Below, piece by piece: positions 3,239 to 51,874 of a DNA stretch of 64,000 nucleotides. The stretch comes from Spirochaetales bacterium (GTDB lineage: Bacteria > Spirochaetota > Spirochaetia > UBA9216), in contig JAEKNX010000001.1 of NCBI GenBank assembly GCA_016839055.1, positions 303,693 to 367,692 on the forward strand. The letters are read 5' to 3'. Position numbers and translations under genes: made by a program. Each line of letters begins with the position of its first letter. The first letter of the stretch is position 1. Below the pieces are notes generated by a model. The model saw only the letters and a list, made by a program, of their open reading frames with translations, was not told the DNA's origin and searched no databases.

Positions 3239-3278
3239 AGAGCATCGACTGAACAATAAAAACACATAGGAGAAAGAC

Positions 3279-5396: not shown

Positions 5397-5411
5397 GTTT
5401 TAAGGATTAAA

Positions 5412-7376: not shown

Positions 7377-7381
7377 TAATA

Positions 7382-7726: not shown

Positions 7727-7727
7727 A

Positions 7728-7892
7728 ATGCTTGGATCTACAGAGATTATTGTAATTGGTGGTGTGATTGTCTTATTATTTGGGGCAAGTGCTATTCCCA
7801 AATTTGCTAAATCATTAGGCCGTGCCAAGAAAGAATTTAAAGACGGCGTGAATGAGGGACTGGAAGAGCAGGATAAAGAAGAAAAGAAATAA
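7728..7892 (+). CDS. tatA: Twin-arginine translocase subunit TatA
   Basis: 54-aa ORF, too short for the ORF track. MLGSTEIIVIGGVIVLLFGASAIPKFAKSLGRAKKEFKDGV... is a canonical TatA. It starts 1 nt after the tatB stop, with an AAGGAG RBS inside the tatB 3' end. Confidence 0.7.
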   Translation: MLGSTEIIVIGGVIVLLFGASAIPKFAKSLGRAKKEFKDGVNEGLEEQDKEEKK

Positions 7893-7979
7893 TATTATTA
7901 CAGATTATCTAATTTTTTACTTGTTATGATATAGTCTTACTAGTTAAATATGATATTTCACGATATTGAGAGGTTTTAT

Positions 7980-16846: not shown

Positions 16847-16855
16847 CGGGATAAT

Positions 16856-18838: not shown

Positions 18839-18846
18839 GGTTTGTA

Positions 18847-20814: not shown

Positions 20815-20832
20815 ACATACAGAGGCAATAGT

Positions 20833-23265
20833 ATGAAAGAAATTAAAAGAAAAGGAAATTCCGAAACTGAACTCATGGAAGGCTTCCTTGAACATTTAAA
20901 ATACAGTCTCGCAGTTAGTCTTGAAAACAGCCACAGCACAGATAAATATATAGCTCTTGCATACACCGTTCGCGACAGGATAATCGAACGGTGGTTTGAC
21001 ACAAAGCGGACGCATGAGGAGAAGAAGGCAAAGTCGGTAAACTATTTTTCATTCGAATTTCTCATGGGCCGGGCCATGAGTAACAACATGATCAATCTCG
21101 GCATCAAGACTGAGGTTGATAAGATGCTGATTGAACTAGGAATCAACTGGGAAGAAATATCCTCAGCTATGGTTGATTCGGGCCTCGGGAACGGCGGACT
21201 CGGACGTCTTGCGGCCTGCTTTCTTGACTCACTTGCTACTCTTGAGATTCCGGCCTACGGCTACGGCCTGCGGTATAAATACGGTTTTTTCAAACAGATA
21301 ATAATAAACGGATATCAGATCGAAGAAGCCGATGACTGGCTGAAAGGAAAAAATCCCTGGGAGATCAGGCGGAATGATATTCCCGTAAAGGTGCAGTTCA
21401 GGGGGCGGGTAGCCAGAAATAAAAAAGGCAGGTGCTTCTGGGTCGATACATCCGATATAATCGGAATACCATATGATACGCCCATTGTCGGTTATGGCGG
21501 GAATACAGTAAATACGCTCAGGCTTTGGGATTCAAAGAGTTCGGAGCAGTTTGACTATCAGGCCTTTAATCAGGGAGATTATTTTAATTCTCTCGATGAA
21601 GAGGTTCTTGCCGAGACCCTTACGCAGGTACTCTATCCGAATGATTCAATATATTCCGGCAAGGAACTCAGATTCAAGCAGCAGTTTTTCTTTGTGAGCG
21701 CATCTCTACAGGATATTTTTCGGCGGTTTAGTAAACTGGATCTGTCGATTGAACATTTTCCTGAAAAAATGGCCATCCAGCTCAATGACACTCATCCTGC
21801 CATAGCTGTAGCCGAGCTGATGAGACTGCTGGTTGATATCGAACAGCTTGACTGGGACGCCGCCTGGGATATAACGAACAGGACTCTCGGATATACAAAC
21901 CATACCCTGATGCCGGAAGCCCTGGAATCCTGGCCTGTTGAGATGTTTGAGAAGTATCTTCCGCGGCATCTCGAGATTATTTATCAGATAAACCACTTTT
22001 TCCTTCAGACTGTTGCCGGGCTCTATCCGGGAGACCAGGGCAAACTTCAGCGGCTGTCCCTGATTGGCGAAGAAGGCGATAAGAAGATAAGGATGGCCCC
22101 CCTTGCAATTCTTGGTTCCCACTCGGTGAACGGTGTTGCCGAGCTTCATTCAAAGCTGGTGAAAGAAAAGCTTGTGCCCGATTTTTATCAGATATTTCCA
22201 GAGAGATTCAATAACAAGACAAACGGAATAACTCAGAGGCGATGGCTGCTGAAGGCAAACCCGGAGCTGTCTGCTTTGATAACAGAGTCGATAGGTGACG
22301 GCTGGATAACCGATCTCAGAGGTTTGAAGAAACTCAATATGTACTCCGATGATTCGGCATTTCTGGGACGTCTGGACAAGATTAAACGCGGCGGAAAGCA
22401 GGAGCTCTCTGATTTTTGTTTCAAGAATTACGGCTACAGACTTAACCCTGACTCAATGTTTGATGTCCAGGTTAAGAGGATACATGAATACAAAAGGCAG
22501 CTGCTCAATGTTCTTCACATAGTAGCCCTCTATAATAGGGTGAGATCCGGTAAAATCATCCATCCCCGTACATTCATCTTCAGTGGAAAGGCCGCGCCGG
22601 GTTACGAGGCTGCAAAACTTATAATAAAGCTGATAAATAACATCAGCAGGGTCATAAACGGTGATAAATCGATGAAGGGAATGCTGGAGGTTCACTTCCT
22701 GCCCAACTACAATGTTTCTCTTGCCGAAAAAATATTTCCGGCGGCTGAATTGTCCGAACAGATCTCTACTGCCGGAACAGAAGCCTCGGGTACCGGAAAC
22801 ATGAAGTTCATGCTTAACGGTGCTTTGACAATAGGAACCCTCGACGGAGCAAACATCGAGATCCTCGAGGAAGTCGGGGCGGAAAACATGTTTATTTTCG
22901 GCCTGAAAACCGAGGAAATTGAAACTCTGCGCCACAACTACAGCCCCGAAGACTATCTTGGAGACGAGGAAATAAATGAGGTAATCAAACTGATAGCAAG
23001 CGGATATTTTAATATAAGTGAAGCGGATATTTTTGAGCCGCTAATACGTAATCTTACGACCTATGATCATTATATGCATATGGCGGATTTCGGTTCTTAC
23101 ATTAAAGCTCAGAATACGGCAGGTGAAAAATATCTTGACAGGCCGGCATGGCTTCGTTCGTCCCTTTTAAACATAGCTAATTCGGGGAAATTTTCATCAG
23201 ATAGAACCATAGCCGAATATGCCTCCGATATCTGGGACGTCAAGGCCTGCCATGTCCCTAAATAA
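20833..23265 (+). CDS. glgP: Glycogen/maltodextrin phosphorylase
   Basis: 810 aa with the GT35 pyridoxal-phosphate motif EASGTGNMKFMLNGALTIGTLDGANIEI. Confidence 0.9.
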   Translation: MKEIKRKGNSETELMEGFLEHLKYSLAVSLENSHSTDKYIALAYTVRDRIIERWFDTKRTHEEKKAKSVNYFSFEFLMGRAMSNNMINLGIKTEVDKMLIELGINWEEISSAMVDSGLGNGGLGRLAACFLDSLATLEIPAYGYGLRYKYGFFKQIIINGYQIEEADDWLKGKNPWEIRRNDIPVKVQFRGRVARNKKGRCFWVDTSDIIGIPYDTPIVGYGGNTVNTLRLWDSKSSEQFDYQAFNQGDYFNSLDEEVLAETLTQVLYPNDSIYSGKELRFKQQFFFVSASLQDIFRRFSKLDLSIEHFPEKMAIQLNDTHPAIAVAELMRLLVDIEQLDWDAAWDITNRTLGYTNHTLMPEALESWPVEMFEKYLPRHLEIIYQINHFFLQTVAGLYPGDQGKLQRLSLIGEEGDKKIRMAPLAILGSHSVNGVAELHSKLVKEKLVPDFYQIFPERFNNKTNGITQRRWLLKANPELSALITESIGDGWITDLRGLKKLNMYSDDSAFLGRLDKIKRGGKQELSDFCFKNYGYRLNPDSMFDVQVKRIHEYKRQLLNVLHIVALYNRVRSGKIIHPRTFIFSGKAAPGYEAAKLIIKLINNISRVINGDKSMKGMLEVHFLPNYNVSLAEKIFPAAELSEQISTAGTEASGTGNMKFMLNGALTIGTLDGANIEILEEVGAENMFIFGLKTEEIETLRHNYSPEDYLGDEEINEVIKLIASGYFNISEADIFEPLIRNLTTYDHYMHMADFGSYIKAQNTAGEKYLDRPAWLRSSLLNIANSGKFSSDRTIAEYASDIWDVKACHVPK

Positions 23266-24871
23266 CAGACTTATTTCTCCGGAGAGCAGCCGGCTGAGTG
23301 TTTTTATAAATGACAAGCCGGTTCCCGATAAAGTCCGTCTTCTGAGGCTCTACGCCGGTGATTATTTGACATTGAAGGTGGAGATAACATCAAAAAAAAG
23401 CTGGGATGAATTTCTACTGCATACCGACCTGGGAGGCAGCTGGTCATATCTCAGTTTTAATAAAGATGAGACTGATGAGTCCTGCTATACTCTTGAACTT
23501 AAGATAGCCGGAGCAGGAGAGTTTTGTTTTCGTTATGCCGCATCCGATGAGAATAGTCTGTACTGGGAGCCGGCACCCTATCACCGGCTTCTTGCCGACC
23601 CGGCAGTTATGGATGGGCTCACAATGTACACACTCATTCCTAATGTCAGCGGACCTGTAAGTGCGTGGAGCAGAAAGCTGCCGGAAATTGCCGCAATGGG
23701 ATTTAACACCATACATTTGCTGCCGGTAACCATGATGGGCTCATCCGAGAGCCCTTACTCCGCCGCGGATCTCTTTAGTCTTGATCCGGCATGGGGAAAG
23801 GACATCGGCGACTTTAAGACCTTCGCAAAGGAGGCCTCCGCAGCCGGGATTATGCTCTGTCTTGATATGGTTCTCAATCACATCAGTATTGATAACCCGG
23901 TATGCACCAAGCATGCTGATTGGCTGATACCCGATGACCAGAGGCCTGACGGACTGAAGCGTGCCGGCTGCTGGCATCACCGGGACTGGATAAGCTGGGA
24001 GGATCTCGTTCTCATCAATTATGATCATCCGGTCAATACCGTTAGAGCCGAAATTTATGACTACATGAGGTCATATATCGATTATTGGATAGAAGCCTCC
24101 GGCGGGAAAGACATAATGATAAGGCTTGATAATCTCCATTCATCAAATCAGCCCTTCATCGGCTGGCTTCTTCCTGAAATAAGATTAAAGTGGCCGGACG
24201 TGATTATCCTATCGGAATACTTCGGAGCCGAAGATCACTTAAATGAGGCTGTACAAACTTTCGGTCTGAACCTGCTTATGGCTAATTCATGGGAGTATCC
24301 CTTTGCTCCGGTTCTTCAGAATTATCTCTCCGGTCTGCATTCGCCGGAAACTTCAGCTAAATATCTTATCGAACCATCCTCACATGATACGGGCAGTATT
24401 CCCGAACTCTTCGGTTCCGTTAGTTCCTCGATTCCGCGTTATCTCTGCTGTGCGTTAATGGGTACAGGGCAGACCGGAATAATACAGGGTTTTGAATACG
24501 GCGCGGCAGAAAAAATAAACTTTATCGGGCGGATACCTGAAAAAAGACCCGAAGCAGAATGGAATTTTACCGGTATGATATCTGCGGTAAACAACATACT
24601 ACATGAATATCCCTGCTTCAGGAAAAAAGGTAATATCGTTTTCCTGGAAACAGGCTGTGACAGTCTGATTGCCTGCAGGCGGACCGGCGAGGGGGCAGAG
24701 TTTATCATAGCGGTAAATCTGGATACCGGGGCGCAGCATGATTTATATATAAATTCCGGAAACCGTTTTCAGTTTATCCTGTCCGAGAATGTTGAGCGGG
24801 AATCGACTGATAATAAAATAGTATTGAAAGCCTGCGGGGTTTGTGTTCTGAAGAATATTATCACCGTATAG
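23252..24871 (+). CDS. GH13 alpha-amylase-family enzyme with an N-terminal beta-sandwich domain (possible glucanotransferase partner of the GDE-type glucosidase)
   Basis: GH13 regions I-IV are recognisable: DMVLNHIS, IRLDNLHS (nucleophile Asp), SEYFG (acid/base Glu), SSHDT. The N-terminal ~150 aa look like a carbohydrate-binding or linker domain. The start is placed at the internal Met (MSLNNR), overlapping the glgP stop by 14 nt. Confidence 0.65.
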   Translation: MSLNNRLISPESSRLSVFINDKPVPDKVRLLRLYAGDYLTLKVEITSKKSWDEFLLHTDLGGSWSYLSFNKDETDESCYTLELKIAGAGEFCFRYAASDENSLYWEPAPYHRLLADPAVMDGLTMYTLIPNVSGPVSAWSRKLPEIAAMGFNTIHLLPVTMMGSSESPYSAADLFSLDPAWGKDIGDFKTFAKEASAAGIMLCLDMVLNHISIDNPVCTKHADWLIPDDQRPDGLKRAGCWHHRDWISWEDLVLINYDHPVNTVRAEIYDYMRSYIDYWIEASGGKDIMIRLDNLHSSNQPFIGWLLPEIRLKWPDVIILSEYFGAEDHLNEAVQTFGLNLLMANSWEYPFAPVLQNYLSGLHSPETSAKYLIEPSSHDTGSIPELFGSVSSSIPRYLCCALMGTGQTGIIQGFEYGAAEKINFIGRIPEKRPEAEWNFTGMISAVNNILHEYPCFRKKGNIVFLETGCDSLIACRRTGEGAEFIIAVNLDTGAQHDLYINSGNRFQFILSENVERESTDNKIVLKACGVCVLKNIITV

Positions 24872-24881
24872 GAGTTGATAG

Positions 24882-26348
24882 ATGAAAAAGATATTGATGC
24901 TGACAAGTGAAACGGTTCCTTATGCCAAAACAGGCGGGCTGGCCGATGTTGTGACGGCTCTAGCTATCGAACTTAAACGGCTTGGCCATGATGTGAGGGT
25001 ACTCATGCCCAGATACTACCATATAGACAGAAGCAGTCTGAAAAGACACGACAGCGCGCTGGGAATATGGCTTGGAAGTGGAGAAGAATGGACTGCTGTA
25101 TATGAAGGACATCTTCCGGGTACTGAAGTGCCGGTATATTTTCTCGATCATGAGCGTTTTTTCGGACGCGACGGGATATACGGAGCCCGGCCTGATGATG
25201 GGTTTGAGGACAACGCAGCGAGATACTCGCTGCTCGCGCGCGGGGCCTTCCAGCTGTGTAGAATGCTGCACTGGTTTCCGGATATAATTCATGCACATGA
25301 CTGGCCGGCGGCTCCGGCCTGCTATCTGCTTAAGAAAGAAGAGGGGCACCGGGAATTCTCGAAGACCAGGAGCGTGCTGACAATCCACAATCTTGGATAT
25401 CAGGGAATCTTTGCCCTGAATGACGCTGTTTATCTGCAGCCTGAACTAGACGTATTAAATCTTTCAACAATAGAGTACTCGGGTGCTTTTAATTTTCTGA
25501 AGGCAGGGATAATGACAGCTGATAAGATTACAACTGTCTCTCCAACCTATGCTGAGGAAATAAAGAGGCCGGAGTATGGTTTTGGGATGGACGGCCTGCT
25601 AAGATACCGCGAACGCGATCTGAGAGGGATTATAAACGGTATCGACTATTCAATCTGGAATCCTGAAACAGATGAATATATCAGCCCCAATAATTTTTCA
25701 GCCGACAATATCAGGAATAAAAAATTAGTTAAAAAAGATCTGCAGAAGAAAGCCGGACTCAAAGCCGCCGCCAATGTTCCGCTTGTCGGAATAGTAACCC
25801 GGCTTGTTGATCAGAAGGGAATTAAGGAATTATGTGCTCCAGGCAGTGGCGCACTATTTTCCATCTGTAGTGATTTTAATATACAATTCGTAATTCTCGG
25901 CTCGGGAGACTCATGGTGTGAAAAGGAACTGAACAGTTTGTCTTCCAAGCTTCCGAACCTGTCGGTGAAAATCGGTTATGACAATCATTTCGCTCACCTG
26001 ATAGAAGCCGGCTCTGATTTCTTTCTCATGCCCAGCCGGTATGAACCCTGCGGTCTCAACCAGCTGTATTCGCTTTCTTACGGGACCCTTCCTATAGTGC
26101 GGAGGACAGGAGGGCTTGCTGATACTGTTGAAAACTATGACATGGAAACCGGCGGCGGAACAGGCTTTCTCTTCGACGACCTGCGTCCGGATGTTCTCTA
26201 TGATGTCCTGAAATGGGTAGTAGAAACATGGGAACAGAGGATGCCGGACATCCTTGCGATGAGAAAGAGGGCAATGGAAAAGCGGTTTGCCTGGGAGAGT
26301 TCGGCCCAGGAGTATCTGGAAGTCTACTCTCAGGCGTTAAAACACTGA
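24882..26348 (+). CDS. glgA: Glycogen synthase (ADP-glucose type, GT5)
   Basis: 488 aa with N-terminal SETVPYAKTGGLADVV, the KTGGL motif of bacterial GlgA. Confidence 0.9.
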   Translation: MKKILMLTSETVPYAKTGGLADVVTALAIELKRLGHDVRVLMPRYYHIDRSSLKRHDSALGIWLGSGEEWTAVYEGHLPGTEVPVYFLDHERFFGRDGIYGARPDDGFEDNAARYSLLARGAFQLCRMLHWFPDIIHAHDWPAAPACYLLKKEEGHREFSKTRSVLTIHNLGYQGIFALNDAVYLQPELDVLNLSTIEYSGAFNFLKAGIMTADKITTVSPTYAEEIKRPEYGFGMDGLLRYRERDLRGIINGIDYSIWNPETDEYISPNNFSADNIRNKKLVKKDLQKKAGLKAAANVPLVGIVTRLVDQKGIKELCAPGSGALFSICSDFNIQFVILGSGDSWCEKELNSLSSKLPNLSVKIGYDNHFAHLIEAGSDFFLMPSRYEPCGLNQLYSLSYGTLPIVRRTGGLADTVENYDMETGGGTGFLFDDLRPDVLYDVLKWVVETWEQRMPDILAMRKRAMEKRFAWESSAQEYLEVYSQALKH

Positions 26349-28107: not shown

Positions 28108-30315
28108 ATGTACAACATTGAAGAATCCCTTAGTGACCAAATCCTGTCATTTAAAAGTTCGCGGCCGACCGTTATATTTACCGAAGCATTAGACCCCCGG
28201 CTTCTTGAAGCCGTTTGTTATTTAACCCGATTTCTGCGGCCCGTTCTTCTCGCGCCTGAAAAAGATGTCAGGAAGGTATTCAGCAGCGAGCTGAGTCACC
28301 TGGAAAAAAGTCGGATAGAATTTACAATTTCTGAATCTAGTTTCGTCGAAATAAGTAAAAACAAAGAACTTGTTGAAGAATTCGCGGCCGAATATCAGAA
28401 GACTCTCGAGGCCGAGGGTGAGAAGATCTCTCATGCTGATGCCGCTGGGAAAATGCTCGACCCCTGTTTGTTTGGAATCTTTGCCGTAAGGCTCGGTCAC
28501 GCCGACATGGTTGTCGGCGGAAGTACACATGAACCGGTCACGTATTTTCGCCATGTGCTGAAATTTCTGAAGAAGAAGCCGGTACAGTCGGAAACCGGGA
28601 TATTTGTTCTTCCTGATGATCATCCTGAAAACATTTATTCAAATAATATAATTGTCTTCGGAGATGTTGGTGTAAACGGTACAATGACTCCCGAAGTTCT
28701 GGCGAGAATAGCCGTAGATACCTGCTCAATCGCCAGGAATCTTTTTCCTGATAATGTTCTGCCGAGGATACATGGCGCCATTGTCTCGTACTCAAATCAC
28801 GGTTCGGATGAAGGTCCGTCACCGGACCTTGTAAAGAAGGCAACAAAGCTCGTTCCGGATCTCCTCAAGGAGTATGCTCAGGAGGATCCGAGGTACAGCA
28901 CCATATCAATCGAAGGTGAAATCAAGGCTAATGTAGCCCTCTCTGAGCGTTCGGCTATGTATTACAACAAGGAAAATGAGGATGGATGGAAGGGCCCTAC
29001 TAATGTAATCATCTGTCCTAACCTCGATATGGGAAATCTACTTTATCATCTTTACGCAACAAGATTCCCCGATGCGAAGAAATTTACAATCATTTCCGGG
29101 GTAGGATTCTCGGCGGTTGATCTGGCCAAAGACTGTTCCTCAGAGGATATTCGGCTTGGAGTCAAGGCGCCTATTCTAAATCTTCTTCAGAAAGAGGGAT
29201 GGACAAAGACCCGTCGTGATACCTTCTTCAGACGCTATAAGGTTCTGGCAATTAATCCTGGATCTACATCGACGAAAGTCAGCGTATATGAAGGTGATTA
29301 TGAGCTTTTCACCGAAGAGCTGCAGCATACGGCAGAAGATCTCGCGCCCTATGAGGGCAAGGCTGTTGCCGAGCAGTTTCAGTATCGAAAAGATATGATA
29401 ATGGAGTTCCTGTCTGAAAACGGATTGTCAATAGATGATCTCGACGCAGTCGCCGGACGCGGAGGCCTTGTTCGGCCGATAAAACACGGGACTTACCGGG
29501 TTAATCAGCGGATGCTTGATGACCTTAGGGCCGGCATAGGCGGCGAACATGCCTCAAACCTCGGAGCGCTTATTGCAAATGAGATGGTTGACGGCACTGA
29601 TCTCCCCGCCTTCATAATTGACCCCATCGTTGTCGATGAGGTGGAAGAGAAGGTCAAGATAACGGGCCTTAGTGAACTGAGGCGGTACATAATCAGCCAT
29701 TCCCTGAACCAGATAGCATCGGCAAAGCGGTATGCTGAGGAGCACGAAACCTTTTACGAGAATCTCAACATCATTGTCGCTCATATGGGAGGCGGAATAT
29801 CCGTCGGTGCTCATTATAAGGGCCGATATGTCGATGTCAACAATGCTCTAAACGGGGAAGGCCCCTTCTCACCACAGCGTTCGGGTTCACTGCCTATAGG
29901 GCCGCTCATAGATCTCTGTTTTTCCGGTAAGTACAGCCATGATGAGATGAAAAAGCTCAATAAGGGCAGGGGAGGCCTTATTAACCTTCTAGGTACAAAC
30001 GATCTGCGTGATGTTGAAAAGATGATAGACGAGGGAAATGAGTTTGCCGCCCTTGTTTTTGATGCTCTCGTATATCAGATGTCAAAGGAGATAAGTTCGC
30101 TTATACCCGCCTTCAATGGAGAGGCTCTGGATCAGGTTATTCTTACCGGTGGAATGGCGCGCTCTGAAAAACTGGTTGAAGGAATTACCGCTTCAATCAA
30201 ACTGCTTGGATGCGGAGTTACCGTTTATCCTGGGGAAAATGAGATGTATGCGCTGGCGAAAGGAACTGTCAGGGTTCTGCAGGGCAAGGAAGAGGCCAGG
30301 GAATACAATCCCTGA
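28108..30315 (+). CDS. Fused phosphate butyryl/acetyl-transferase (PTA_PTB) and butyrate/acyl kinase (Ptb-Buk fusion)
   Basis: 735 aa. The N-terminal ~330 aa are a PTA/PTB-family domain (..IVFGDVGVN..). The C-terminal ~360 aa start with the butyrate-kinase N-motif INPGSTSTKVSVYEG and carry ASKHP-family acetate/butyrate kinase motifs (IVAHMGGGISV). Confidence 0.8.
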   Translation: MYNIEESLSDQILSFKSSRPTVIFTEALDPRLLEAVCYLTRFLRPVLLAPEKDVRKVFSSELSHLEKSRIEFTISESSFVEISKNKELVEEFAAEYQKTLEAEGEKISHADAAGKMLDPCLFGIFAVRLGHADMVVGGSTHEPVTYFRHVLKFLKKKPVQSETGIFVLPDDHPENIYSNNIIVFGDVGVNGTMTPEVLARIAVDTCSIARNLFPDNVLPRIHGAIVSYSNHGSDEGPSPDLVKKATKLVPDLLKEYAQEDPRYSTISIEGEIKANVALSERSAMYYNKENEDGWKGPTNVIICPNLDMGNLLYHLYATRFPDAKKFTIISGVGFSAVDLAKDCSSEDIRLGVKAPILNLLQKEGWTKTRRDTFFRRYKVLAINPGSTSTKVSVYEGDYELFTEELQHTAEDLAPYEGKAVAEQFQYRKDMIMEFLSENGLSIDDLDAVAGRGGLVRPIKHGTYRVNQRMLDDLRAGIGGEHASNLGALIANEMVDGTDLPAFIIDPIVVDEVEEKVKITGLSELRRYIISHSLNQIASAKRYAEEHETFYENLNIIVAHMGGGISVGAHYKGRYVDVNNALNGEGPFSPQRSGSLPIGPLIDLCFSGKYSHDEMKKLNKGRGGLINLLGTNDLRDVEKMIDEGNEFAALVFDALVYQMSKEISSLIPAFNGEALDQVILTGGMARSEKLVEGITASIKLLGCGVTVYPGENEMYALAKGTVRVLQGKEEAREYNP

Positions 30316-30319: not shown

Positions 30320-31171
30320 TCAGTTTTCTTTATTGAGAAGCTGATCCAGTGAATCATGAGTGCGGTTGAGTGTCGAGGATATAGAGTTGGCATCCTGAAG
30401 TAGACGGAAAACATCTTCAAGTGACTTGAGCCCGTCAGTAATGGCTATCGTCTGTTCCGACACTCCTCCCTTTATCTCTGCCAGCATATAGCCGGAATTC
30501 TCGAGACTTTTTCTGCTCTTATCGAAGTCACGGCTTGTCTCAAGCATGTCCTTCTGGAAATTCTCCAGGAGGACAATAAGATCGTTGAAGCTGCCTCGTA
30601 CCTGCTTGAGCCCGGAGTTGAACTCGTTGATGGATCCGCTTATTGTATTCGCGAAATCCTGAGTCTGTACCGAAAGGCTCCTTATTTCCTTTGCAATGAT
30701 ATTAAATCCCTTGCCCGAGCTTCCTGCGCGTGCTGCCTCAATGGATGCGTTAATAGCAAGGATGTTTGTCTGCTGGGCAACATCATCAATTTCACGTGTC
30801 ATTTCACGCACCTGCGAGGATTTATCCTCGAGTGAAGAAAAAAGGCCGTGGAGCTTCTGTGATTCCTCAGTTGCGTGAGTTATTTCTTCGACATTCTTCT
30901 GAATAGCGGAATTAACAGAAGAGGTCGTCTGGATAATTTCACTCATGCTGCTGTAAATATTTTCGGTGTTTGTGCTTGTACTCTCTGAGGTTGCCCTTAT
31001 TTCTTCAAAACTCGCGACGATCGTCTCTAACGAATTATGAATATTTTGTATCTTTCTCTCTATTATGTTCATGGCACTCTGGGTCACTTTTGAGAGGATT
31101 ATCCCCTTATTATAGCCAATGGTAAGAAGAGACATCGTTTTTTTGAAGAAATTTGATTGTTTATCACTCAT
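30320..31171 (-). CDS. Soluble methyl-accepting chemotaxis protein (signalling domain only)
   Basis: 283 aa, no TM segment. Highly conserved MCP tip ILAINASIEAARAGSSGKGFNIIAKEIRSLS. Confidence 0.8.
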   Translation of the reverse strand: MSDKQSNFFKKTMSLLTIGYNKGIILSKVTQSAMNIIERKIQNIHNSLETIVASFEEIRATSESTSTNTENIYSSMSEIIQTTSSVNSAIQKNVEEITHATEESQKLHGLFSSLEDKSSQVREMTREIDDVAQQTNILAINASIEAARAGSSGKGFNIIAKEIRSLSVQTQDFANTISGSINEFNSGLKQVRGSFNDLIVLLENFQKDMLETSRDFDKSRKSLENSGYMLAEIKGGVSEQTIAITDGLKSLEDVFRLLQDANSISSTLNRTHDSLDQLLNKEN

Positions 31172-31176
31172 ATCCG

Positions 31177-31950
31177 TTACTCGTAAATCTCGTCGATTAT
31201 ATCAATTCCGCATTGAAGGCCTGCGAACCAGTCAAGAAATTTCTTTACATTTTCATCTTTGAATATTGCACCATGTTGGGGCGCAAGATACTTAATATTA
31301 AGACCGTCAAGTTTTGATATCCATTTCTTTGCAGCCTTGTTGGAGGACATGTATCTGCGGTGGAAGCCTTCCATGATCTTTCGATGCTCATCAAAGTCTT
31401 CAACAAAAATATACTGATTTCCCGTAGGAAAGACTGCAGCGCCTATGTCGCTAGTAAATAAAACACAGGAAACCGGATCAAAAAAACTATAGCAGCCTGC
31501 TGAATGCAGAAAATGAGCCGGAATCAGTTTCAAGTCAGTTGATCCGGCAAGTTTTAGACTTCCCCCGAGTCCTTCTATTCCGACTATTCTGTCTTGATTA
31601 ACTATTCCAAAGTGGGGAATGAATCTAAGCCAGAGCTCAGATATGTAGACCTTTGCCTTGGTGACCCCCAGCCAGAGAGCTATTCCGCTTGATACATCCG
31701 GATCCTGGTGGGAAAAAAAGATATTGTCGATCTTATCGAGATCAATATATCTGCTTACAAGGGCTATTACACGTGCAAAAAGATGTATTCCGCCAGGATC
31801 TACCAGGGTCCCGCGGCCGTTGCTTATAATCAGGTATTGATTAGTCTGGACGACGCCTTGTTCTTCGACTTCATCCGCGCCGAGCCAGATGAACTGATGC
31901 CCTCCATCCTGAAAGAGAATTTTACCGTTTATATCATTTGAGTTTATCAA
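31177..31950 (-). CDS. Metallo-beta-lactamase-fold diiron-type protein resembling the flavodiiron N-domain / ODP (oxygen-binding diiron protein) family
   Basis: 257 aa MBL fold. Metal-ligand pattern H-x-D-x-D (SHQDPDV) plus downstream H, D, H (PAHFLHS, TSDIG, APQHG), like FprA/ROO N-domains but without a flavodoxin domain. It is co-oriented 5 nt upstream of the soluble MCP, the arrangement described for ODP-MCP pairs. Confidence 0.55.
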   Translation of the reverse strand: MINSNDINGKILFQDGGHQFIWLGADEVEEQGVVQTNQYLIISNGRGTLVDPGGIHLFARVIALVSRYIDLDKIDNIFFSHQDPDVSSGIALWLGVTKAKVYISELWLRFIPHFGIVNQDRIVGIEGLGGSLKLAGSTDLKLIPAHFLHSAGCYSFFDPVSCVLFTSDIGAAVFPTGNQYIFVEDFDEHRKIMEGFHRRYMSSNKAAKKWISKLDGLNIKYLAPQHGAIFKDENVKKFLDWFAGLQCGIDIIDEIYE

Positions 31951-32073
31951 TGATTCCTCCTGAGTCTGCTATTCTTAATTAATAGTATATTTAGGGCTTT
32001 AGATCAAATGCATCCAAAAAAGCCGCGGGAATGTTGACTCCCGCGGCAGTGATATTTAAGAAATTACCGACAA

Positions 32074-33882
32074 TCAGATAATACTCTCAGCTGTGATTTC
32101 CTCCCAGATCTCCTTAATAGAGTGCTTAACCTTCCGTTTACGATCGGTATAGCTTGTATGAAGAAGTCTGTGAGATTTATGCGACAGAGGTTCTCCGAGA
32201 AAATCCTCGTAGATCTTTTTAATCATCGGATTATTATGGGACTGCCTGACAGGCGCATTGGCGTCTATTGTATATAAGCCCTGCTGTCTTGCTTCCTTGT
32301 TATACTGGTACTCACCCTTGATCCTCGGCTGTCCGCCGCCTGATATGCATCCTCCGGGACAGGCCATGACCTCGATGAAGAGGTATTTGTCTGCCTCTCC
32401 GGTTTTAATTTTTTCAAGGACATTACGGGCGGCCTTAAGACCTGTTGCCATGCCTACTTTTACCTTGCCGTAGTCTCCGCCGAGATCAATTTCAGCTTCT
32501 CTGAAATTCTCAAGCCCGCGGACGGCCTTGATGTCTATCTTATCAAGTTCCTTTCCGTTGACAACAGCATAAAGGGTTCTGAGAGCGGCTTCCATTACAC
32601 CGCCGGTAGCTCCGAAAATGACCGCGGCGCCGGTGTAGTCGCCCATCCATGGGTTGTCATACACTGAATCGGGAAGGTCGGCCAGCCAGACACCCTCACG
32701 CTTAAGCAGCCTTGAGAACTCACGCGTGGTAAGAACAACATCAACATCCGGTTTCCCGTTCTGAGTCATCTCCGGACGTTTTGCCTCTTCCTTTTTTGCG
32801 GTGCAGGGCATTATTGAAACAACCCTCATATTACGGGGATTAATGCCCATTTTCTCGGCAAGGAAGCTTTTTGCTATAGCTCCGAACATCTGCTGGGGCG
32901 ACTTTGCCGAAGACAGATGCGGAATGAGCTCGGGATAATTTTTTTCTACGAAATTGATCCAGCCGGGAGAGCAGGAGGTCATCATCGGCAGAGTTCCGCC
33001 GTTTTTGATCCTGTCTAGCAGCTCGGTACCTTCCTCCATTATTGTCAGGTCGGCCGAGAAGTTCGTATCGAGGATTACATCACCTCCGATTTTGCGGATG
33101 GCTGAAATTATTTTTGCTTCTACAGATTCCCCCGAGAGCATGTGAAACTCTTCTCCCAGGGCAACCCTGACTGCCGGCGCTACCTGGAATACAGTCACAA
33201 TTTCCGGATCATAGAGATAATCAACAACTTCCTCGGTATCGTCCCGGGCGGCAAGGGCTCCTACCGGGCAGACCAGCGTACACTGTCCGCAGCTTACGCA
33301 GTTTGAACTACCGAGAGCCAGGCTGTCTTTTATGCCAATTTCGGTAGTAAGCCCCTTGTCGGTGAAGACGAGGACGTCGGTCTTCTGCACTTCACGGCAG
33401 ACCTCCACACAGCGAAGGCATCTGATGCATTTGCTCATGTCGCGGATTATAGCCGGAGACGAGATTTCCTTCGTTCTACCCCTGTAGAAATGGGGATAAT
33501 TATAATGTGTCTGCTCCAGGCCTACAAACTGGGCTACATCCTGAAGCTCACAGTCGCCGTGTCTGATGCAGGACGCGCAGTCCTGATTGTGGTCGGCAAG
33601 CAGAAGCTCAACCTGCAGCCTTTGACGCTCTCTTACCAGCCTTGTTCGGGTAAGCACCTCCATGCCTTCGGCCATCGGGGTGTCACAGCTGGTCACAATC
33701 TGATGTTCGGGGCCTCCCTTTTTTTTAGTATCAACAAGGCAGACCCTGCAGGTACCGGGAGTATGATTAAGGCATGTAAGAGCACAGAGGGTCGGAATGA
33801 AATGTCCGTGGGCCCTTGCGGTCTGCAGGATAGTATCATTTTCGTTAAATTCGACTTCTTTTCCGTTTATATATCCTTTCAT
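32074..33882 (-). CDS. hydA: [FeFe]-hydrogenase catalytic subunit (HydA), M3-type
   Basis: N-terminal 2Fe-2S and two 4Fe-4S ferredoxin motifs, then H-cluster motifs TSCSPGW, MPCTAKKEE and EVMACPGGCISGGGQP. The start is set at the internal Met (MKGYINGKEV) to remove the overlap with the upstream gene. Confidence 0.9.
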   Translation of the reverse strand: MKGYINGKEVEFNENDTILQTARAHGHFIPTLCALTCLNHTPGTCRVCLVDTKKKGGPEHQIVTSCDTPMAEGMEVLTRTRLVRERQRLQVELLLADHNQDCASCIRHGDCELQDVAQFVGLEQTHYNYPHFYRGRTKEISSPAIIRDMSKCIRCLRCVEVCREVQKTDVLVFTDKGLTTEIGIKDSLALGSSNCVSCGQCTLVCPVGALAARDDTEEVVDYLYDPEIVTVFQVAPAVRVALGEEFHMLSGESVEAKIISAIRKIGGDVILDTNFSADLTIMEEGTELLDRIKNGGTLPMMTSCSPGWINFVEKNYPELIPHLSSAKSPQQMFGAIAKSFLAEKMGINPRNMRVVSIMPCTAKKEEAKRPEMTQNGKPDVDVVLTTREFSRLLKREGVWLADLPDSVYDNPWMGDYTGAAVIFGATGGVMEAALRTLYAVVNGKELDKIDIKAVRGLENFREAEIDLGGDYGKVKVGMATGLKAARNVLEKIKTGEADKYLFIEVMACPGGCISGGGQPRIKGEYQYNKEARQQGLYTIDANAPVRQSHNNPMIKKIYEDFLGEPLSHKSHRLLHTSYTDRKRKVKHSIKEIWEEITAESII

Positions 33883-33892
33883 GGTTGTGCTC

Positions 33893-35875
33893 CTATTTCT
33901 CAGTAATCGCGAGAGAGACTCTGTAGCACCTGAGACAGCGGCTTGCTTCCTCATATGCCTGTTCTACAGTGATATTCTTCTCGACTTCTTCGAAGATCTT
34001 TTTCCGGACCTCCGGATCAATTTCATCGGCAATTATCCGTTTTGTCGCCCTTACAGGAACTGCGAGATAGTCAGTGTCATCCTTCTCAATATCCTTGATG
34101 AGCTCACTCATTCTCTCTGAAGGATCAAAGAGAACCCTCCCGTGGGTGAGGTAGTCATCTATAGACTTCGCAGCCTTCATTCCGAGGGCCATAGCCTCGA
34201 TAAGGGTCTTGGGTCCGGTTGTACAGTCTCCACCGGCAAAAACACCCTTCTGGGTAGTCTCGAGGGTGTGAGGCTCGGCGTCGATGAGTCCCCATTTATT
34301 CAGTTCAATTCCGTCGTTCGGAGACAGGAAGGAATGGTCAACTCTCTGGCCGATTGCAGGAATTATAAAGTCACAATCCATAGTATATTCGGAGCCGTCA
34401 ACAGGTTTTGCGCTTCTTCTTCCGCCGGCATCAGGTTCTCCAAGTTCCATTTTTATAAGCTTAAGACCGGTTACCTGGTTGTCTTTTGAGACAATCTGTA
34501 CCGGATGTGTGAGAAAATGAAAGATTACTCCTTCTTTCTCGGCCGCCTCTATTTCTTCATGGTCCGCGGGCATTTCATCTTTTGACCGCCTATAAACCAG
34601 ATGAACTTCTTCGGAGCCCATTCTGAGAGCTGACCTGGCACAGTCCATAGCTACATTACCGCCTCCGACAATTACCATCTTATTTCCAAGATCAACATCG
34701 AGGCCGATATTCAGGTAGTAATGGTTTATATAGAGCAGAAAGTTTATTCCTGATTTATATCCCTTCATCGAGCGTTGTTCACCCGGAATTCCAATCATTT
34801 TTCCGGTGCCGGCTCCTATTCCGAGGAAGAAGGCCTTATAACCCCGTTTCTTCAGATCAGTGAGAGTGAAATCCTTTCCCATCCGCTGATTGTAATATAT
34901 TTTTCCGCCTAGGGTTTCGACTATTCCGATTTCCTTATGAAGGACATCGGATGGAAGCCGATAGTTAGGAATCCCAACCGAGGCCATACCGCCTGGTTCC
35001 GAATGAGCTTCAAAGATATCTACTGAATACCCTTTGAGAAGGAGGTGATAGGCGGCGTTGATGCCGGCCGGGCCGGTACCGATAATCGCGACTTTCAGAT
35101 CATCCGGTTTTTTATCGGCGATTAGATCCTGGTCAAACCAGTTATCGGAGATGTATTTTTCCCGTTCAGCGACAAAGCGCTTGAGCAGTTTGATGCCGAC
35201 AGGTTCGTCAACGAGGTTTCTTCTGCATGCAAATTCACAGAAACGTACGCAGACCCGTCCGCAGGTCTCGGCCATCGGATACTTCTGTAGTATTACACTT
35301 ACAGAATGGGTGAGCTTGCCGTCCTGGATGTAGTCGATGTAGCGCGGGACTTCTACTTTGGCTGGACATGCTTCAATACAGGGAGCCGTGACATAGGAGT
35401 AGGCTTCCTGTCGCTTGTAATTTGCTATGTCTCTTATCTCGGCTTCAAGCTCCTGACGGAAGTAAGTGAGCATCTTCTGAAGGGCAACGGTGGCTGTCTG
35501 CCCCAGCCCGCAGAGGCTTGTGGTTCTTACATGTTCGGCAAGCAGTTCAAGTTCGTCCAGAGACTCAACTCCCGCTACACCATTTATGATGTCAGCAAGT
35601 TTCTGCTTGATTATATTGGTTCCAACCCTGCAGGGAGTACATGCCCCGCATGATTCTTTAGCGGCTCTGGTTATATACAACATGGCCGCATCTAAAAGAT
35701 TAACACCTCCATCGAAGATGAAGAATCCCTTCCAGCCAAAAAAAGCTTTTATTGGATTGCCAGGGTTAAATTCAACAAAGTTGTCGAAACGGGGACTGTC
35801 TTCTATCTCAAACATCCTTTTGTCCCTGTTGTCAATGACTTCACCATCCCAGACACCAAAAATTACTTTACTCAT
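33893..35875 (-). CDS. Hydrogenase-associated flavoprotein: NuoF C-terminal (4Fe-4S, SLCGLGQTA) domain fused to a glutamate-synthase small-subunit (GltD)-like FAD/NAD(P) oxidoreductase
   Basis: N-terminus has ESCGACTPCRVGT...SLCGLGQTA (NuoF/HoxF iron-sulfur region) but lacks the FMN/NADH-binding part. The remainder has ferredoxin-like Cys clusters and AIIGTGPAGINAAYHL / VIVGGGNVAMDCA dinucleotide folds, as in GltD/NfnB. The start is taken at MSKVIF (AGGAG RBS). Confidence 0.75.
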   Translation of the reverse strand: MSKVIFGVWDGEVIDNRDKRMFEIEDSPRFDNFVEFNPGNPIKAFFGWKGFFIFDGGVNLLDAAMLYITRAAKESCGACTPCRVGTNIIKQKLADIINGVAGVESLDELELLAEHVRTTSLCGLGQTATVALQKMLTYFRQELEAEIRDIANYKRQEAYSYVTAPCIEACPAKVEVPRYIDYIQDGKLTHSVSVILQKYPMAETCGRVCVRFCEFACRRNLVDEPVGIKLLKRFVAEREKYISDNWFDQDLIADKKPDDLKVAIIGTGPAGINAAYHLLLKGYSVDIFEAHSEPGGMASVGIPNYRLPSDVLHKEIGIVETLGGKIYYNQRMGKDFTLTDLKKRGYKAFFLGIGAGTGKMIGIPGEQRSMKGYKSGINFLLYINHYYLNIGLDVDLGNKMVIVGGGNVAMDCARSALRMGSEEVHLVYRRSKDEMPADHEEIEAAEKEGVIFHFLTHPVQIVSKDNQVTGLKLIKMELGEPDAGGRRSAKPVDGSEYTMDCDFIIPAIGQRVDHSFLSPNDGIELNKWGLIDAEPHTLETTQKGVFAGGDCTTGPKTLIEAMALGMKAAKSIDDYLTHGRVLFDPSERMSELIKDIEKDDTDYLAVPVRATKRIIADEIDPEVRKKIFEEVEKNITVEQAYEEASRCLRCYRVSLAITEK

Positions 35876-35883
35876 AATTTCTC

Positions 35884-36330
35884 CTAAAAATTGACGATTT
35901 CGGGTGATTTCCCGGATTCCCGTAAACATTTTACGAATTCAGTAAAAACCGTATTTTTATCAATCCCGTTAACAGGATTAAAGGCCCTTCCATGATAGAT
36001 TTTAATTCTATCATGCCTCATGATTTCATTTTTCAGTAGTTTTACCGCATCATTAGCGGTGTATTCACTAAAAAAAATCTCATTAAGTTTTTTGATTGTT
36101 AAAGTACCTTCTGCAACAATAATATTACCGAGAAAACCATAGGGATGCATTCCGCATCCTGATGTTTTCAAATCGATTCTTGTTTTATCTTTCAACCGTC
36201 GCTCGAAAATTAAGCTGGTTGTCCCTCCGAGAATGATTTTCCCGCCGTCCTCTTTGATGAAGCTGCTGACTGCTTCATCATCGTCTGAGCGGTTCTCCGG
36301 AGGTCCGAAAAATATTACAAGACCGGACAT
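35884..36330 (-). CDS. Hypothetical protein in the hydrogenase operon
   Basis: 148 aa, no secure motif. Translationally coupled between the 2Fe-2S ferredoxin gene and the GltD-like gene. Confidence 0.4.
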   Translation of the reverse strand: MSGLVIFFGPPENRSDDDEAVSSFIKEDGGKIILGGTTSLIFERRLKDKTRIDLKTSGCGMHPYGFLGNIIVAEGTLTIKKLNEIFFSEYTANDAVKLLKNEIMRHDRIKIYHGRAFNPVNGIDKNTVFTEFVKCLRESGKSPEIVNF

Positions 36331-36578
36331 TATCCTGCCGTGTTGAGCACTTCTTTAAGAAAAAAACCTTCCGCTTCTTCTGGGCTCGTTTCAAAGACGT
36401 TTGAATTAACGCTTACCCGAACTTTCTTGCCGGAACATTGCCCCATGCAGAATGCACCCTTAAGACTGATGTTTTTTTCAAGCTTGTTTGATGTGATAAG
36501 ATGCTGAAATGTCTTTATCACCTTTGTCGCCCCTCTGAGATGGCATGAAGTACCAATACAGACTGTAAGCTCGACCAT
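36330..36578 (-). CDS. Thioredoxin-like [2Fe-2S] ferredoxin (NuoE/HydC-like minimal form)
   Basis: 82 aa with four Cys in a CIGTSCHLRG...CMGQCS arrangement, typical of thioredoxin-like 2Fe-2S ferredoxins found in hydrogenase operons. Confidence 0.6.
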   Translation of the reverse strand: MVELTVCIGTSCHLRGATKVIKTFQHLITSNKLEKNISLKGAFCMGQCSGKKVRVSVNSNVFETSPEEAEGFFLKEVLNTAG

Positions 36579-36779
36579 GAGAACCTCCTCGTTAGAGATG
36601 AATAATTATCAAAATACCGGCTTATTATACACGAGTATTTGTGCACCGCAAGAGACAATTGCCTGATTTGTCAGTGTTAGAGCGCTAACACGAAGTTCAT
36701 CTAAGGACGTAAAAACATATAAAAACGACTGGAAAAAAAATGAGATAAGAATTATCATTTTTATATAAGATATTGAGGA

Positions 36780-37304
36780 GTGAATATGAAAAAAGGGCTA
36801 TCAGTAGTTTTCCTGTTATCAATTCTGTTATCCGGAGTTTTTGCCCAGGAAGAAAGAAGTATTACTATTAAAAATGAAACAGGATACAACATCATCTATC
36901 TGTATTTTTCCCCTTCCGATTATGATGACTGGGGTGATGATTTCCTCGAAGGTCTTCAGCTAGCCGACGGTGAATCGATTGACGTGAAATTGAGCCGTGA
37001 TTATGACGTGTCGCAGAACATTTATGATCTGCAGGCCGTAGATGAGGATGATGACTATTACACTATTTATGAGACGGATATATCTAATAATCCGCTCGTG
37101 ACGATTACGATGGATAATTATGACGGCGGAAGTGAAGATGATGATTATGATTATGATGATGAATATTCGGGTTATGATGACGGCTATAGTGACGGCTACA
37201 CCGAAGGCTACAAACTTGGATATACTGAGGCCTTTCGTGATGCTTACCTGGAAGGTTTCAGAGCCGCGCAGGAAATAGAAGTGCCTGCCGACAGCTGGAG
37301 ATAG
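36780..37304 (+). CDS. Secreted highly acidic Asp/Tyr/Gly-rich protein of unknown function
   Basis: 174 aa. Signal peptide MNMKKGLSVVFLLSILLSGVFAQ. C-terminal low-complexity region DDDYDYDDEYSGYDDGYSDGYTEGYKLGYTEAF. Confidence 0.5.
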   Translation: MNMKKGLSVVFLLSILLSGVFAQEERSITIKNETGYNIIYLYFSPSDYDDWGDDFLEGLQLADGESIDVKLSRDYDVSQNIYDLQAVDEDDDYYTIYETDISNNPLVTITMDNYDGGSEDDDYDYDDEYSGYDDGYSDGYTEGYKLGYTEAFRDAYLEGFRAAQEIEVPADSWR

Positions 37305-51833: not shown

Positions 51834-51874
51834 TCAGTACACCTTTTTTTTATAGTAAGATGAAAGCCTGGTTT

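Follow-up and report, generated by a model that had tools for sequence, protein, structure and literature searches.

Group A2 of the [FeFe]-hydrogenases, called "glutamate-synthase-linked", is delimited in HydDB by a GltD-type domain in the protein encoded immediately downstream of the catalytic subunit HydA, together with the specification "not NuoF", and a 2026 bioRxiv preprint searched for GltD-type domains within two genes on either side of a group A HydA. Papers from 2019 to 2026 describe the group as functionally unresolved or uncharacterised (PMC5037454, PMC6776011 and the 2026 bioRxiv preprint). In such enzymes, which include the "dimeric NAD(P)H-dependent" type D(M3) of Calusinska, an M3-type HydA is encoded beside a GltD-like flavo-iron-sulfur protein for flavin adenine dinucleotide (FAD) and NADPH, as in Cthe_3003/3004, and there is no HydB of the flavin mononucleotide (FMN) type; they have been proposed to couple H2 to NADP(H). 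In C. thermocellum, HydA Cthe_3003 and the adjacent GltD-like Cthe_3004 are both abundant, and NADPH-dependent hydrogenase activity in extracts was 5-10 times the ferredoxin- or NADH-dependent activity (PMC3492117). Here we analyse a cluster of this kind in a window of 64,000 nucleotides (nt) from a Spirochaetales bacterium (GenBank assembly GCA_016839055.1, contig JAEKNX010000001.1, positions 303,693 to 367,692), the window being the whole stretch of DNA that was analysed. Four genes in series on its minus strand (36578-32074) encode proteins of 82, 148 and 660 amino acids (aa) and a HydA of 602 aa. With a probability of roughly 0.6, we consider that they specify a cytoplasmic, reversible, non-bifurcating NADP(H)-linked [FeFe]-hydrogenase. 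An earlier note on this DNA had described an M3-type HydA preceded, in the same orientation, by a [2Fe-2S] ferredoxin, a 148-aa hypothetical protein and an unusual 660-aa fusion protein, and had assigned the cluster to a poorly characterised group A2. Reading of the open reading frames (ORFs) returned the same four minus-strand genes, and the papers cited above still speak of a functionally unresolved class.

Compared with the described examples of group A2, the GltD-like gene lies here upstream of hydA, its product carries the cluster domain of the NuoF C-terminus, and two small genes stand before it. With the HydABC enzymes (A3/Bfu type; A. woodii, T. kivui), which provide the closest solved relatives of its HydA, the cluster has in common a NuoF-type [4Fe-4S] domain and a NuoE-family [2Fe-2S] protein. 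However, the FMN/NADH core and the C-terminal ferredoxin domain of HydB, as well as the N-terminal half of HydC, are missing, and a GltD/NfnB-type FAD/NADPH module is found instead. This module has the FAD/NADPH fold and the two [4Fe-4S] clusters of NfnAB/NfnSL, StnC and the Bfu-type NfnA (4ylf, 5jca, 8oh5, 9bov, 9n5u), with 37-40% identity in structural alignments, and the C-terminal CxxC tail of the 660-aa protein is a feature of StnC and Bfu-type NfnA. In contrast to the Nfn and Stn systems, there is no FMN-containing bifurcating StnAB/NfnBC module, and output would go to a hydrogenase through the fused NuoF C-terminus; a partner of the NfnA/S kind (PyrK-like, with FAD, [2Fe-2S] and an NAD site) was found neither in the operon nor in its flanks (26-44 kb). 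Finally, with respect to the NADP-dependent formate dehydrogenase (FDH) beta subunit/SfrB (M. thermoacetica sfrB2-sfrA2-fdhF3), the partner is here an [FeFe]-hydrogenase and not a molybdo/tungstopterin FDH: no molybdo/tungstopterin catalytic gene is adjacent, HydA standing in its place here and in 12 of 12 related loci. We take the M. thermoacetica FDH beta subunit to have the same layout of NuoF C-terminus and GltD module and to pair with a NuoG-like N-terminus. The link of the 660-aa protein to this subunit consists only in the name "formate dehydrogenase (NADP+) beta subunit" that JGI gives to its homologues, and a literature search for the locus tag of the subunit, Moth_2313, returned nothing. 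In function, we infer that the spirochaete enzyme would be analogous to the NADP-dependent FDH/SfrAB type.

The four genes are located as follows.

36578..36330, minus strand: 82-aa thioredoxin-like [2Fe-2S] ferredoxin (PF01257), first gene of the operon
36330..35884, minus strand: 148-aa protein, whose ATG shares one base with the preceding TAA
35875..33893, minus strand: 660-aa flavo-iron-sulfur subunit, preceded by an 8-nt gap that holds AGGAG
33882..32074, minus strand: HydA, 602 aa, M3-type, after a 10-nt gap, with AGGAG overlapping the stop codon of the 660-aa gene

Within the 660-aa protein, which is identical to a deposited protein of a Spirochaetales metagenome-assembled genome (MAG) named "FAD-dependent oxidoreductase", the following regions can be distinguished.

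35429..35749, minus strand: NuoF/HydB C-terminal four-helix [4Fe-4S] domain, residues 43-149, with Cys76, 79, 82 and 122 (TIGR01959)
35159..35389, minus strand: Fer4_20 region, residues 163-239, with Cys166, 170, 205, 209, 213 and 217 (PF14691, E 2e-21)
34187..35095, minus strand: FAD- and NAD(P)H-binding Rossmann domains, residues 261-563 (PF07992, E 2.8e-30; motifs GTGPAG and GGGNVAMD...VHLVYRRS)
33923..34027, minus strand: C-terminal tail, residues 617-651, with Cys647-x2-Cys650 (HMMER, query 617-650 aligned to 4ylf_B 9-42)

The Pfam matches of the protein are PF10589 (NADH_4Fe-4S, residues 65-145), PF14691 (residues 163-239) and PF07992 (Pyr_redox_2, residues 261-563). In the same search, the FMN/NADH domain of NuoF (PF01512) matched none of the four proteins, and no FMN domain was found at the locus in any frame. 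NuoF models reach the 660-aa protein only over their last ~105 positions (TIGR01959, positions 306-410 of 410, 62.8 bits against a cut-off of 558), and the NuoF-type model PRK13596 gives a partial match of 55.5 bits. Residues 43-149 are equivalent to the domain that holds cluster N3 in complex I and match the HydB chains 7q4v_B (residues 425-530) and 8a6t_B (residues 443-562). Thus, the mapping with Pfam, NCBIfam and the PDB agrees with the earlier note, which had seen the iron-sulfur part of the NuoF C-terminus joined to a GltD/NfnB-like module with no FMN domain; the motifs quoted there, ESCGACTPC and SLCGLGQTA, are both present.

It could be argued that the locus is a standard HydABC cluster of the A3 type, with a HydB misread or truncated by a frameshift or an assembly error, since NCBIfam names its HydA "NADH-dependent, group A6" and both a NuoF-type cluster domain and a NuoE-family ferredoxin are present. 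The earlier note had held that a complete FMN-binding NuoF domain would make this a standard HydABC-type enzyme. None was found: PF01512 is absent, an in-frame stop lies 18 codons upstream of the 660-aa start, and the 695 nt upstream are filled by the two small genes, which are conserved, the 148-aa gene being under purifying selection. A hidden FMN domain or a frameshift was therefore rejected. In addition, the same length and architecture recur in at least 120 clusters and in 12 loci, and this HydA shows 64-69% identity to fusion-paired HydAs from outside the spirochaetes, against just 41% to that of a true HydABC cluster. To such a misreading we give practically no weight.

The GltD-like module was compared with structurally characterised flavoproteins. 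Its best matches were the NfnA chains of T. sibiricus (9n5u_A, E 2e-106) and Csac (9bov_A, 1e-103), followed by T. maritima NfnB (4ylf_B, 1.4e-95), StnC (8oh5_C, 8.5e-94) and 5jca_L (2.3e-81). Two [4Fe-4S] clusters call for eight Cys, six of which are found in the Fer4_20 region, which aligns with 4ylf_B, 9bov_A and 9n5u_A. Since the C-terminal CxxC tail corresponds to the N-terminal CxxC segment of NfnB, the module appears to be a circular permutation of NfnB, as in StnC and Bfu-type NfnA; the tail is also aligned in 9n5u_A and 9bov_A and, according to the table of matches only, is spanned by that of 8oh5_C (query 164-650). All 12 iron-sulfur Cys of the 660-aa protein, including Cys647 and Cys650, are 100% conserved in 118 homologues, which would imply three [4Fe-4S] clusters besides the FAD. 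The nucleotide-site motif VHLVYRRSKDEMPA agrees with the aligned NfnB and Bfu-type NfnA chains, and the motif YRR(S/T)xxEMPA is common to all of them. In StnC, the GltD module has been shown experimentally to be an NADPH-binding, non-bifurcating entry site (PMC10482914). Searches of PDB sequences and with Foldseek found no PDB chain that combines the NuoF C-terminus with a GltD module. When the AlphaFold2 (AF2) model of the 660-aa protein was used in Foldseek, 5jca_L ranked first (TMq <= 0.49); the predicted local distance difference test score (pLDDT) of this model is mostly 70-90 in the NuoF C-terminal region, with dips near residues 31-40 and 71-80, and mostly 80-95 in the Rossmann region.

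The name "glutamate-synthase-linked" raises another explanation, namely that the 660-aa protein is a true GltD which passes H2-derived reductant to the GltB of a glutamate synthase. HydDB gives this as a possible role, and the gltA/gltD models TIGR01316 and TIGR01318 are matched with 351 and 290 bits. However, these scores stay under the curated cut-offs of 472 and 483, and the same holds for all models of this kind: like TIGR01316 and TIGR01318, PRK12771 (426 bits) and PRK12814 are matched with E far below 1e-3 and under the whole-protein cut-offs of NCBIfam. The similarity of the protein to the Nfn/Stn modules exceeds that to GltD (E about 1e-106 versus 1e-57), and neither the permuted CxxC tail nor the NuoF C-terminus is a GltD feature. 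Moreover, no GltB-like gene was found in the related loci or among the scanned window ORFs of at least 150 aa (all but 50748-63879). A link to glutamate synthase is very improbable, and the comparison suggests that the partner module belongs with Stn/Nfn and is no true GltD.

In Pfam, the HydA shows the M3 layout (Fer2_4, NADH-G_4Fe-4S_3, two Fer4, Fe_hyd_lg_C and Fe_hyd_SSU), as the earlier note had stated, and it passes the group A model TIGR02512 with 515 bits (cut-off 406). By motif, it holds a [2Fe-2S] cluster, a His-ligated [4Fe-4S] cluster (H98/C102/C105/C111, H98-x3-C-x2-C-x5-C), two further [4Fe-4S] clusters, the H-domain and a C-terminus like the small subunit (SSU). NF040763, the model named "NADH-dependent, group A6", is just at threshold (766.8 bits versus a cut-off of 765). 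The mechanically called ORF has 626 aa and starts at 33954; homologues of 598-602 aa, however, begin to align at residue 1 of the 602-aa form. The two top matches in the PDB are HydA1 chains of HydABC enzymes, the second of them being 8a6t_A (528 bits), which we take to be T. kivui HydA1. The first is 7q4v_A (548 bits), from A. woodii (PMC10021017). Against the group A signatures L1 (TSCCPxW), L2 (MPCxxKxxE) and L3 (ExMxCxxGCxxGGGQP), L2 (MPCTAKKEE) and L3 (EVMACPGGCISGGGQP) are canonical, and L1 carries an exchange:

32959..32979, minus strand: H-cluster motif L1, TSCSPGW, residues 302-308, with Ser305 at the position of a Cys ligand of the [4Fe-4S]H cubane and the proton-relay Cys304 kept

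The same Ser (Ser301) is found in A. woodii HydA1, which is active and has a normal infrared signature of the H-cluster (PMC10021017). By analogy with this enzyme, Ser305 should be no defect, and, L2 and L3 being intact as well, the idea that TSCSPGW marks an inactive or sensory HydA was rejected. Ser occupies this position in all six spirochaete orthologues. Among the best 120 HydA relatives (63-92% identical), Ser stands in 66 and Cys in 53; each of the 28 nearest carries Ser, and below ~68% identity the two states are intermixed. This interleaving among close relatives suggests that the exchange at the cubane ligand has occurred repeatedly and is nearly neutral.

We then asked how regularly the two large subunits go together. 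The best 120 clusters for the 660-aa protein (60-100% identity) all consist of proteins of ~660 aa with PF10589, PF14691 and PF07992, and, as these are the best matches listed, at least 120 clusters share length and architecture. Those with a named source belong to Spirochaetes and Desulfobacterota, and many carry the FDH name given by JGI. Twelve related loci are readable to the end of hydA, and in all 12 the fusion gene lies immediately upstream of a HydA of 598-602 aa. These are L001-L006 and L023 (spirochaete MAGs and a close metagenome contig), L016 (Desulfonema ishimotonii), L017 (Desulfosalsimonas propionicica, where the pair adjoins hydE/G/F) and the metagenome contigs L025, L026 and L027. 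Since the pairing is kept in all of them and the HydA is closest to fusion-paired HydAs (64-69% identity to the non-spirochaete ones, 41% to the HydA of the true HydABC cluster L019), the fusion is a regular partner in a large two-gene family, and the word "unusual" in the earlier note has to be withdrawn. Nine Bacillota loci from the genome scan (L007-L015) were discarded because they are not orthologous clusters and have Bfu-type NfnA/StnC-like genes with no H-cluster domain. In the rumen and hindgut MAGs among them (L007-L013), a NuoF C-terminus is followed by a protein that joins a GltD module and ferredoxin domains to a HydA-like [2Fe-2S] N-terminus; such loci resemble Bfu-type NfnABC/Stn clusters, in which the same modules are wired differently. 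In public databases, relatives of the HydA are named "NADH-dependent [FeFe] hydrogenase, group A6", "[FeFe] hydrogenase, group A", "HndC", "ferredoxin hydrogenase gamma subunit" or "(2Fe-2S)-binding protein", and those of its partner "formate dehydrogenase beta subunit", "FAD-dependent oxidoreductase" or "NAD(P)-binding protein".

As the term is used in current surveys, the cluster belongs to group A2, a class that is widespread and already catalogued. The assignment in the earlier note stands in that a HydA is found beside a GltD-like flavoprotein with no FMN module, but not by the literal rule of HydDB: the GltD-like gene is directly upstream of hydA, and downstream there are a terminator and then a gene for an ODP di-iron protein. 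The GltD-type domains that HydDB asks for are present in the 660-aa protein (PRK12771, PRK12814, TIGR01316 and TIGR01318), and the 2026 preprint works with these domains as well. As for the exclusion of NuoF, PF01512 is absent, yet the C-terminal domain gives the partial NuoF matches described above. Because the GltD-like gene is upstream and matches NuoF in part, an automatic run of the HydDB type could call this HydA A1 or even A3.

In the mechanism that we favour, HydA would be the catalyst, with the H-cluster and four accessory iron-sulfur clusters, and the 660-aa subunit would be the pyridine-nucleotide module, in which NADPH reduces the FAD and electrons leave one at a time through two [4Fe-4S] clusters. 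By homology with complex I and HydABC, where the NuoF C-terminus contacts a NuoG-like N-terminus such as HydA has, the N3-type [4Fe-4S] domain would act as a plug docking on the HydA N-terminus, as in NuoF-NuoG and HydB-HydA. Electrons would then run from NADPH through FAD, the two [4Fe-4S] clusters, the N3-type [4Fe-4S] cluster and the [2Fe-2S]/[4Fe-4S] chain of HydA to the H-cluster, and in the reverse direction. The M. thermoacetica NADPH-dependent FDH works near equilibrium at ~-400 mV, and cellular NADPH is at ~-370 mV (PMC13040438). For the H+/H2 couple, our own estimate is about -355 mV at 0.01 atm. Since the cellular NADPH potential is close to that of H+/H2 at moderate H2, a simple NADP(H)-linked hydrogenase is feasible, and the enzyme might act like a valve that connects H2 with the pool of NADPH, the reaction being near equilibrium at an NADPH potential of ~-370 mV. 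Non-bifurcation is favoured because the operon encodes neither an FMN-type HydB/StnB nor an NfnA/S and because the GltD module of StnC is non-bifurcating. The sequence data themselves show the genes present, the cofactor ligands, the operon, the conservation and the homology of each part. What we infer in this scheme are the docking of the subunits, the order of the clusters, the specificity for NADPH, the lack of bifurcation and the physiological direction.

Several observations weigh against the proposal of a non-bifurcating NADP(H)-linked enzyme. An enzyme with just this architecture is yet to be purified, the PDB has no chain that spans the fusion, and group A2 is still called functionally unresolved. 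The precedent of C. thermocellum is indirect. The order of the clusters gets no support from the AF2 model, in which the pLDDT is <50 at residues 169-246 and 599-660 and the predicted template-modelling score (pTM) is 0.59. A preference for NADPH over NADH is suggested by the nucleotide-site motif. Furthermore, in NfnAB it is a GltD fold that houses the bifurcating flavin, and the Arg of the bifurcating geometry is present in all homologues.

The last point leads to the alternative of a new type of confurcating or bifurcating hydrogenase, in which the NfnB-like FAD bifurcates and NADPH and reduced ferredoxin together yield 2 H2, or the reverse, with one branch passing through the two Fer4_20 clusters and the other through the NuoF-type cluster, the 82-aa [2Fe-2S] protein or both. 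Structural alignment gives the module 40% identity to T. maritima NfnB (4ylf_B), whose FAD bifurcates. The Arg near flavin N5 and the four-Cys region of the FAD-proximal cluster are closer to NfnB than to StnC, and three [4Fe-4S] clusters plus an extra [2Fe-2S] protein exceed the need of a linear wire. Likewise, among solved structures the nearest to this HydA are HydA subunits of bifurcating HydABC enzymes, and it fits NF040763 at threshold. Comparing residues that might separate bifurcating from non-bifurcating flavins (the Arg close to N5 and the StnC Lys/Cys ligands) was uninformative, the published difference being geometric; the Arg, in the motif GIPxYRLP, is present in every aligned homologue of the 660-aa protein. 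Against bifurcation, there is no second flavin or nucleotide site that could take the high-potential electron, neither an NfnA/PyrK-like nor an FMN subunit being encoded, and the 82-aa ferredoxin is missing in the Desulfonema, Desulfosalsimonas and L025 loci and so would not be an essential branch. The CxxC tail is of the StnC/Bfu-NfnA type, and the StnC flavin was shown to be non-bifurcating. In addition, a reaction with NADPH only is thermodynamically feasible. We regard a bifurcating enzyme as unlikely.

The two small genes at the head of the cluster were then compared with the hfs cassette of Thermoanaerobacterium (hfsABCD: small ferredoxin, HydS, PP2C phosphatase, kinase), to parts of which both proteins correspond. 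A regulatory role of the hfs genes has been shown (PMC5707799). The 82-aa protein matches PF01257 (E 2.3e-6) only over model positions 67-131 of 145, with Cys7, Cys12, Cys44 and Cys48, and does not cover the N-terminal half of a HydC/NuoE-type subunit (~160 aa, with a helical N-terminal domain). Over its full length, it is 46% identical to an 85-aa protein encoded just before HydS in L019, and 32% to a HydC/NuoE-like protein. The 148-aa protein, identical to the deposited "hypothetical protein JEZ04_01615", is predicted to have an alpha/beta, Rossmann-like fold; it has no Pfam or NCBIfam match, no SpoIIE match and no iron-sulfur motif. Among 1.84 billion representatives, a profile built from it retrieved 506 relatives (E<=1e-3), and a metagenome scan gave one locus only. 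Of the 150 best relatives, 82 are proteins of ~385 aa with an N-terminal SpoIIE/PP2C domain, the homology lying in their C-terminal ~160 residues. From these alignments, the protein is a stand-alone copy of the C-terminal domain (about residues 225-385, with no Pfam family) of HydS-linked SpoIIE/PP2C phosphatases, with 34% identity to that domain and with the conserved motifs GPP, GGTT, EG(T/S)LT and GRAxNP (L019, L020-L022, L027). Accordingly, the protein, "hypothetical" in the earlier note, is identifiable as a domain of HydS-associated phosphatases.

Copies of this domain occur either as the C-terminal half of HydS-linked phosphatases or stand-alone beside thioredoxin-like [2Fe-2S] (HydC-type) genes, and the stand-alone copies adjoin HydC/HydB-like genes in unrelated contigs. 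In L019, the order is HydC-HydB-HydA-(85-aa ferredoxin)-HydS-PP2C. In L027, a ferredoxin-HydS-PP2C array, with a 385-aa SpoIIE protein that has the C-terminal domain, is found directly upstream of an orthologous fusion-HydA pair (65% and 69% identity); on this metagenomic contig (682..7850), a Rex-like protein with a fused or adjacent thioredoxin-like ferredoxin comes first, then HydS-PP2C and then the pair. Therefore, H2-sensing cassettes, known with HydABC clusters, accompany pairs of the A2 type as well. From the domain composition of the hfs genes and the gene orders of L019 and L027, the 82-aa and 148-aa proteins may be equated with hfsA and hfsC. Since both match parts of the cassette that stands complete before the orthologous pair in L027, the window cluster looks, by sequence, like the L027 arrangement minus HydS and minus the phosphatase catalytic domain. 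Beside it there is no gene for HydS, a PP2C catalytic domain or a kinase, and the motif TSC.P.W occurs a single time among the window ORFs of at least 300 aa, a weak test for HydS since the HydS of L019 has no such motif.

If only two end pieces of a cassette that is complete in L027 are kept, they might be non-functional leftovers of a deletion, and the 148-aa gene is indeed missing in L004, L005 and the Desulfobacterota loci. The 82-aa ferredoxin gene is found upstream of the pair in L001-L006, L023 and L024, that is, in all spirochaete loci, and in L026 and L027; it stands without the 148-aa gene in L004, L005 and L026, and neither gene is present in L016, L017 and L025. Against the leftover explanation, the ferredoxin is retained in every spirochaete locus, neither ORF is interrupted, both show translational coupling to the operon, and stand-alone copies of the 148-aa domain are found beside HydC/HydB-like genes elsewhere. 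Moreover, the 148-aa gene has a ratio of nonsynonymous to synonymous substitution rates (dN/dS) of 0.18 at dS 0.83 versus L024, with 49 columns invariant in seven homologues; this gene is under purifying selection and not decaying. That the pair of small genes is non-functional is distinctly unlikely. We tend to see in them an extra electron-transfer or regulatory adaptor pair outside the catalytic core. A further proposal gives both a place in a bifurcating enzyme: the HydA/fusion pair and the thioredoxin-like [2Fe-2S] protein would form a minimal bifurcating hydrogenase (NADPH, ferredoxin, H2), in which an NfnB-type FAD replaces FMN/HydBC, and the 148-aa domain might be an unrecognised adaptor through which thioredoxin-like [2Fe-2S] proteins are tied to complexes of this sort or to the PP2C-based regulation of these. 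Taken jointly, these assumptions are highly doubtful.

The signals around the non-bifurcating hydrogenase that we favour are the following.

36651..36646, minus strand: weak -35 box TTGCGG, with a 16-nt spacer to TATAAT and 3 of 6 consensus positions matching
36624..36629, minus strand: candidate -10 box TATAAT, ~45 nt upstream of the first start codon, read from the sequence
32047..32016, minus strand: intrinsic terminator, an 11-bp stem with 8 G-C pairs and then TTTTTT, 27 nt past the hydA stop

The candidate promoter does not appear in the output of the consensus scan because its -35 box matches at only 3 of 6 positions, and the evidence for it is weak. An Rfam scan of 30-39 kb matched no regulatory RNA family. 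Short gaps or overlapping stop and start codons, ribosome-binding sites (RBSs) and a strong terminator after hydA indicate that the four genes are one operon, which is closed by that terminator, and the genes past it, having their own RBS, leave the operon with exactly these four.

Past the terminator (31950..30320, minus strand), a 257-aa di-iron protein of the ODP family (PF19583, E 6e-71; TTG start, AGGAGG RBS) and a 283-aa soluble methyl-accepting chemotaxis protein (MCP), consisting of the signalling domain only, are encoded. Such an ODP and MCP gene pair is presumably the O2/iron chemotaxis sensor described in Treponema denticola. Both genes were rejected as members of the operon because of the strong terminator and separate RBS between them and hydA, and L001, the closest relative, is the one related locus where they adjoin the hydrogenase (75% and 70% identity). 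On the other side (36780..37304, plus strand), a divergent gene encodes a 174-aa protein with a hydrophobic N-terminus, a D/E/Y-rich C-terminus and a weak Yae1_N match, and keeps its place beside the cluster in L001, L023 and L024 (57-78% identity). A plus-strand ORF of 735 aa (28108..30315) combines a PTA_PTB phosphotransacylase domain (residues 16-348) with a partial match to the acetate kinase family (residues 538-702) and may be a fused or degenerate Pta-Ack-like protein. Farther away (2576..10181, plus strand), genes for a 4Fe-4S dicluster protein, a 705-aa aldehyde:ferredoxin oxidoreductase (AFOR_N/AFOR_C), a 185-aa protein with no match, an FdhD-like protein, TatC and a 743-aa Pyr_redox_2 flavoprotein form a cluster that resembles multi-subunit tungsten oxidoreductase systems, with rubrerythrin and iron-containing alcohol dehydrogenase genes upstream of it. 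A long glycogen operon (15563..26348, plus strand) encodes GlgC, branching enzyme, debranching enzyme (GDE), glycogen phosphorylase, an amylase-like protein and glycogen synthase, which is in line with a saccharolytic, fermenting host of the hydrogenase.

The locus adds no class of hydrogenase and is an ordinary member of a widespread, biochemically unresolved kind. Group A2 is found in 17% of human-gut bacterial species according to one 2026 survey and is expressed in the low-methane sheep rumen; having no characterised member, it is left out of H2-flux models. The same genes are an annotation trap, since they go under the names "NADH-dependent group A6 hydrogenase", "formate dehydrogenase beta subunit", "HndC" and "FAD-dependent oxidoreductase". 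For the family, the Ser/Cys switch at the cubane ligand recurs in close relatives, and a domain with no Pfam family is tied to hydrogenase clusters. The fusion-HydA pair can stand under a HydS-PP2C H2-sensing cassette, which is reduced here to two small genes, and the best reading of the NuoF fragment is that of a conserved plug for docking that would join an NADPH flavoprotein to the NuoG-like end of HydA.

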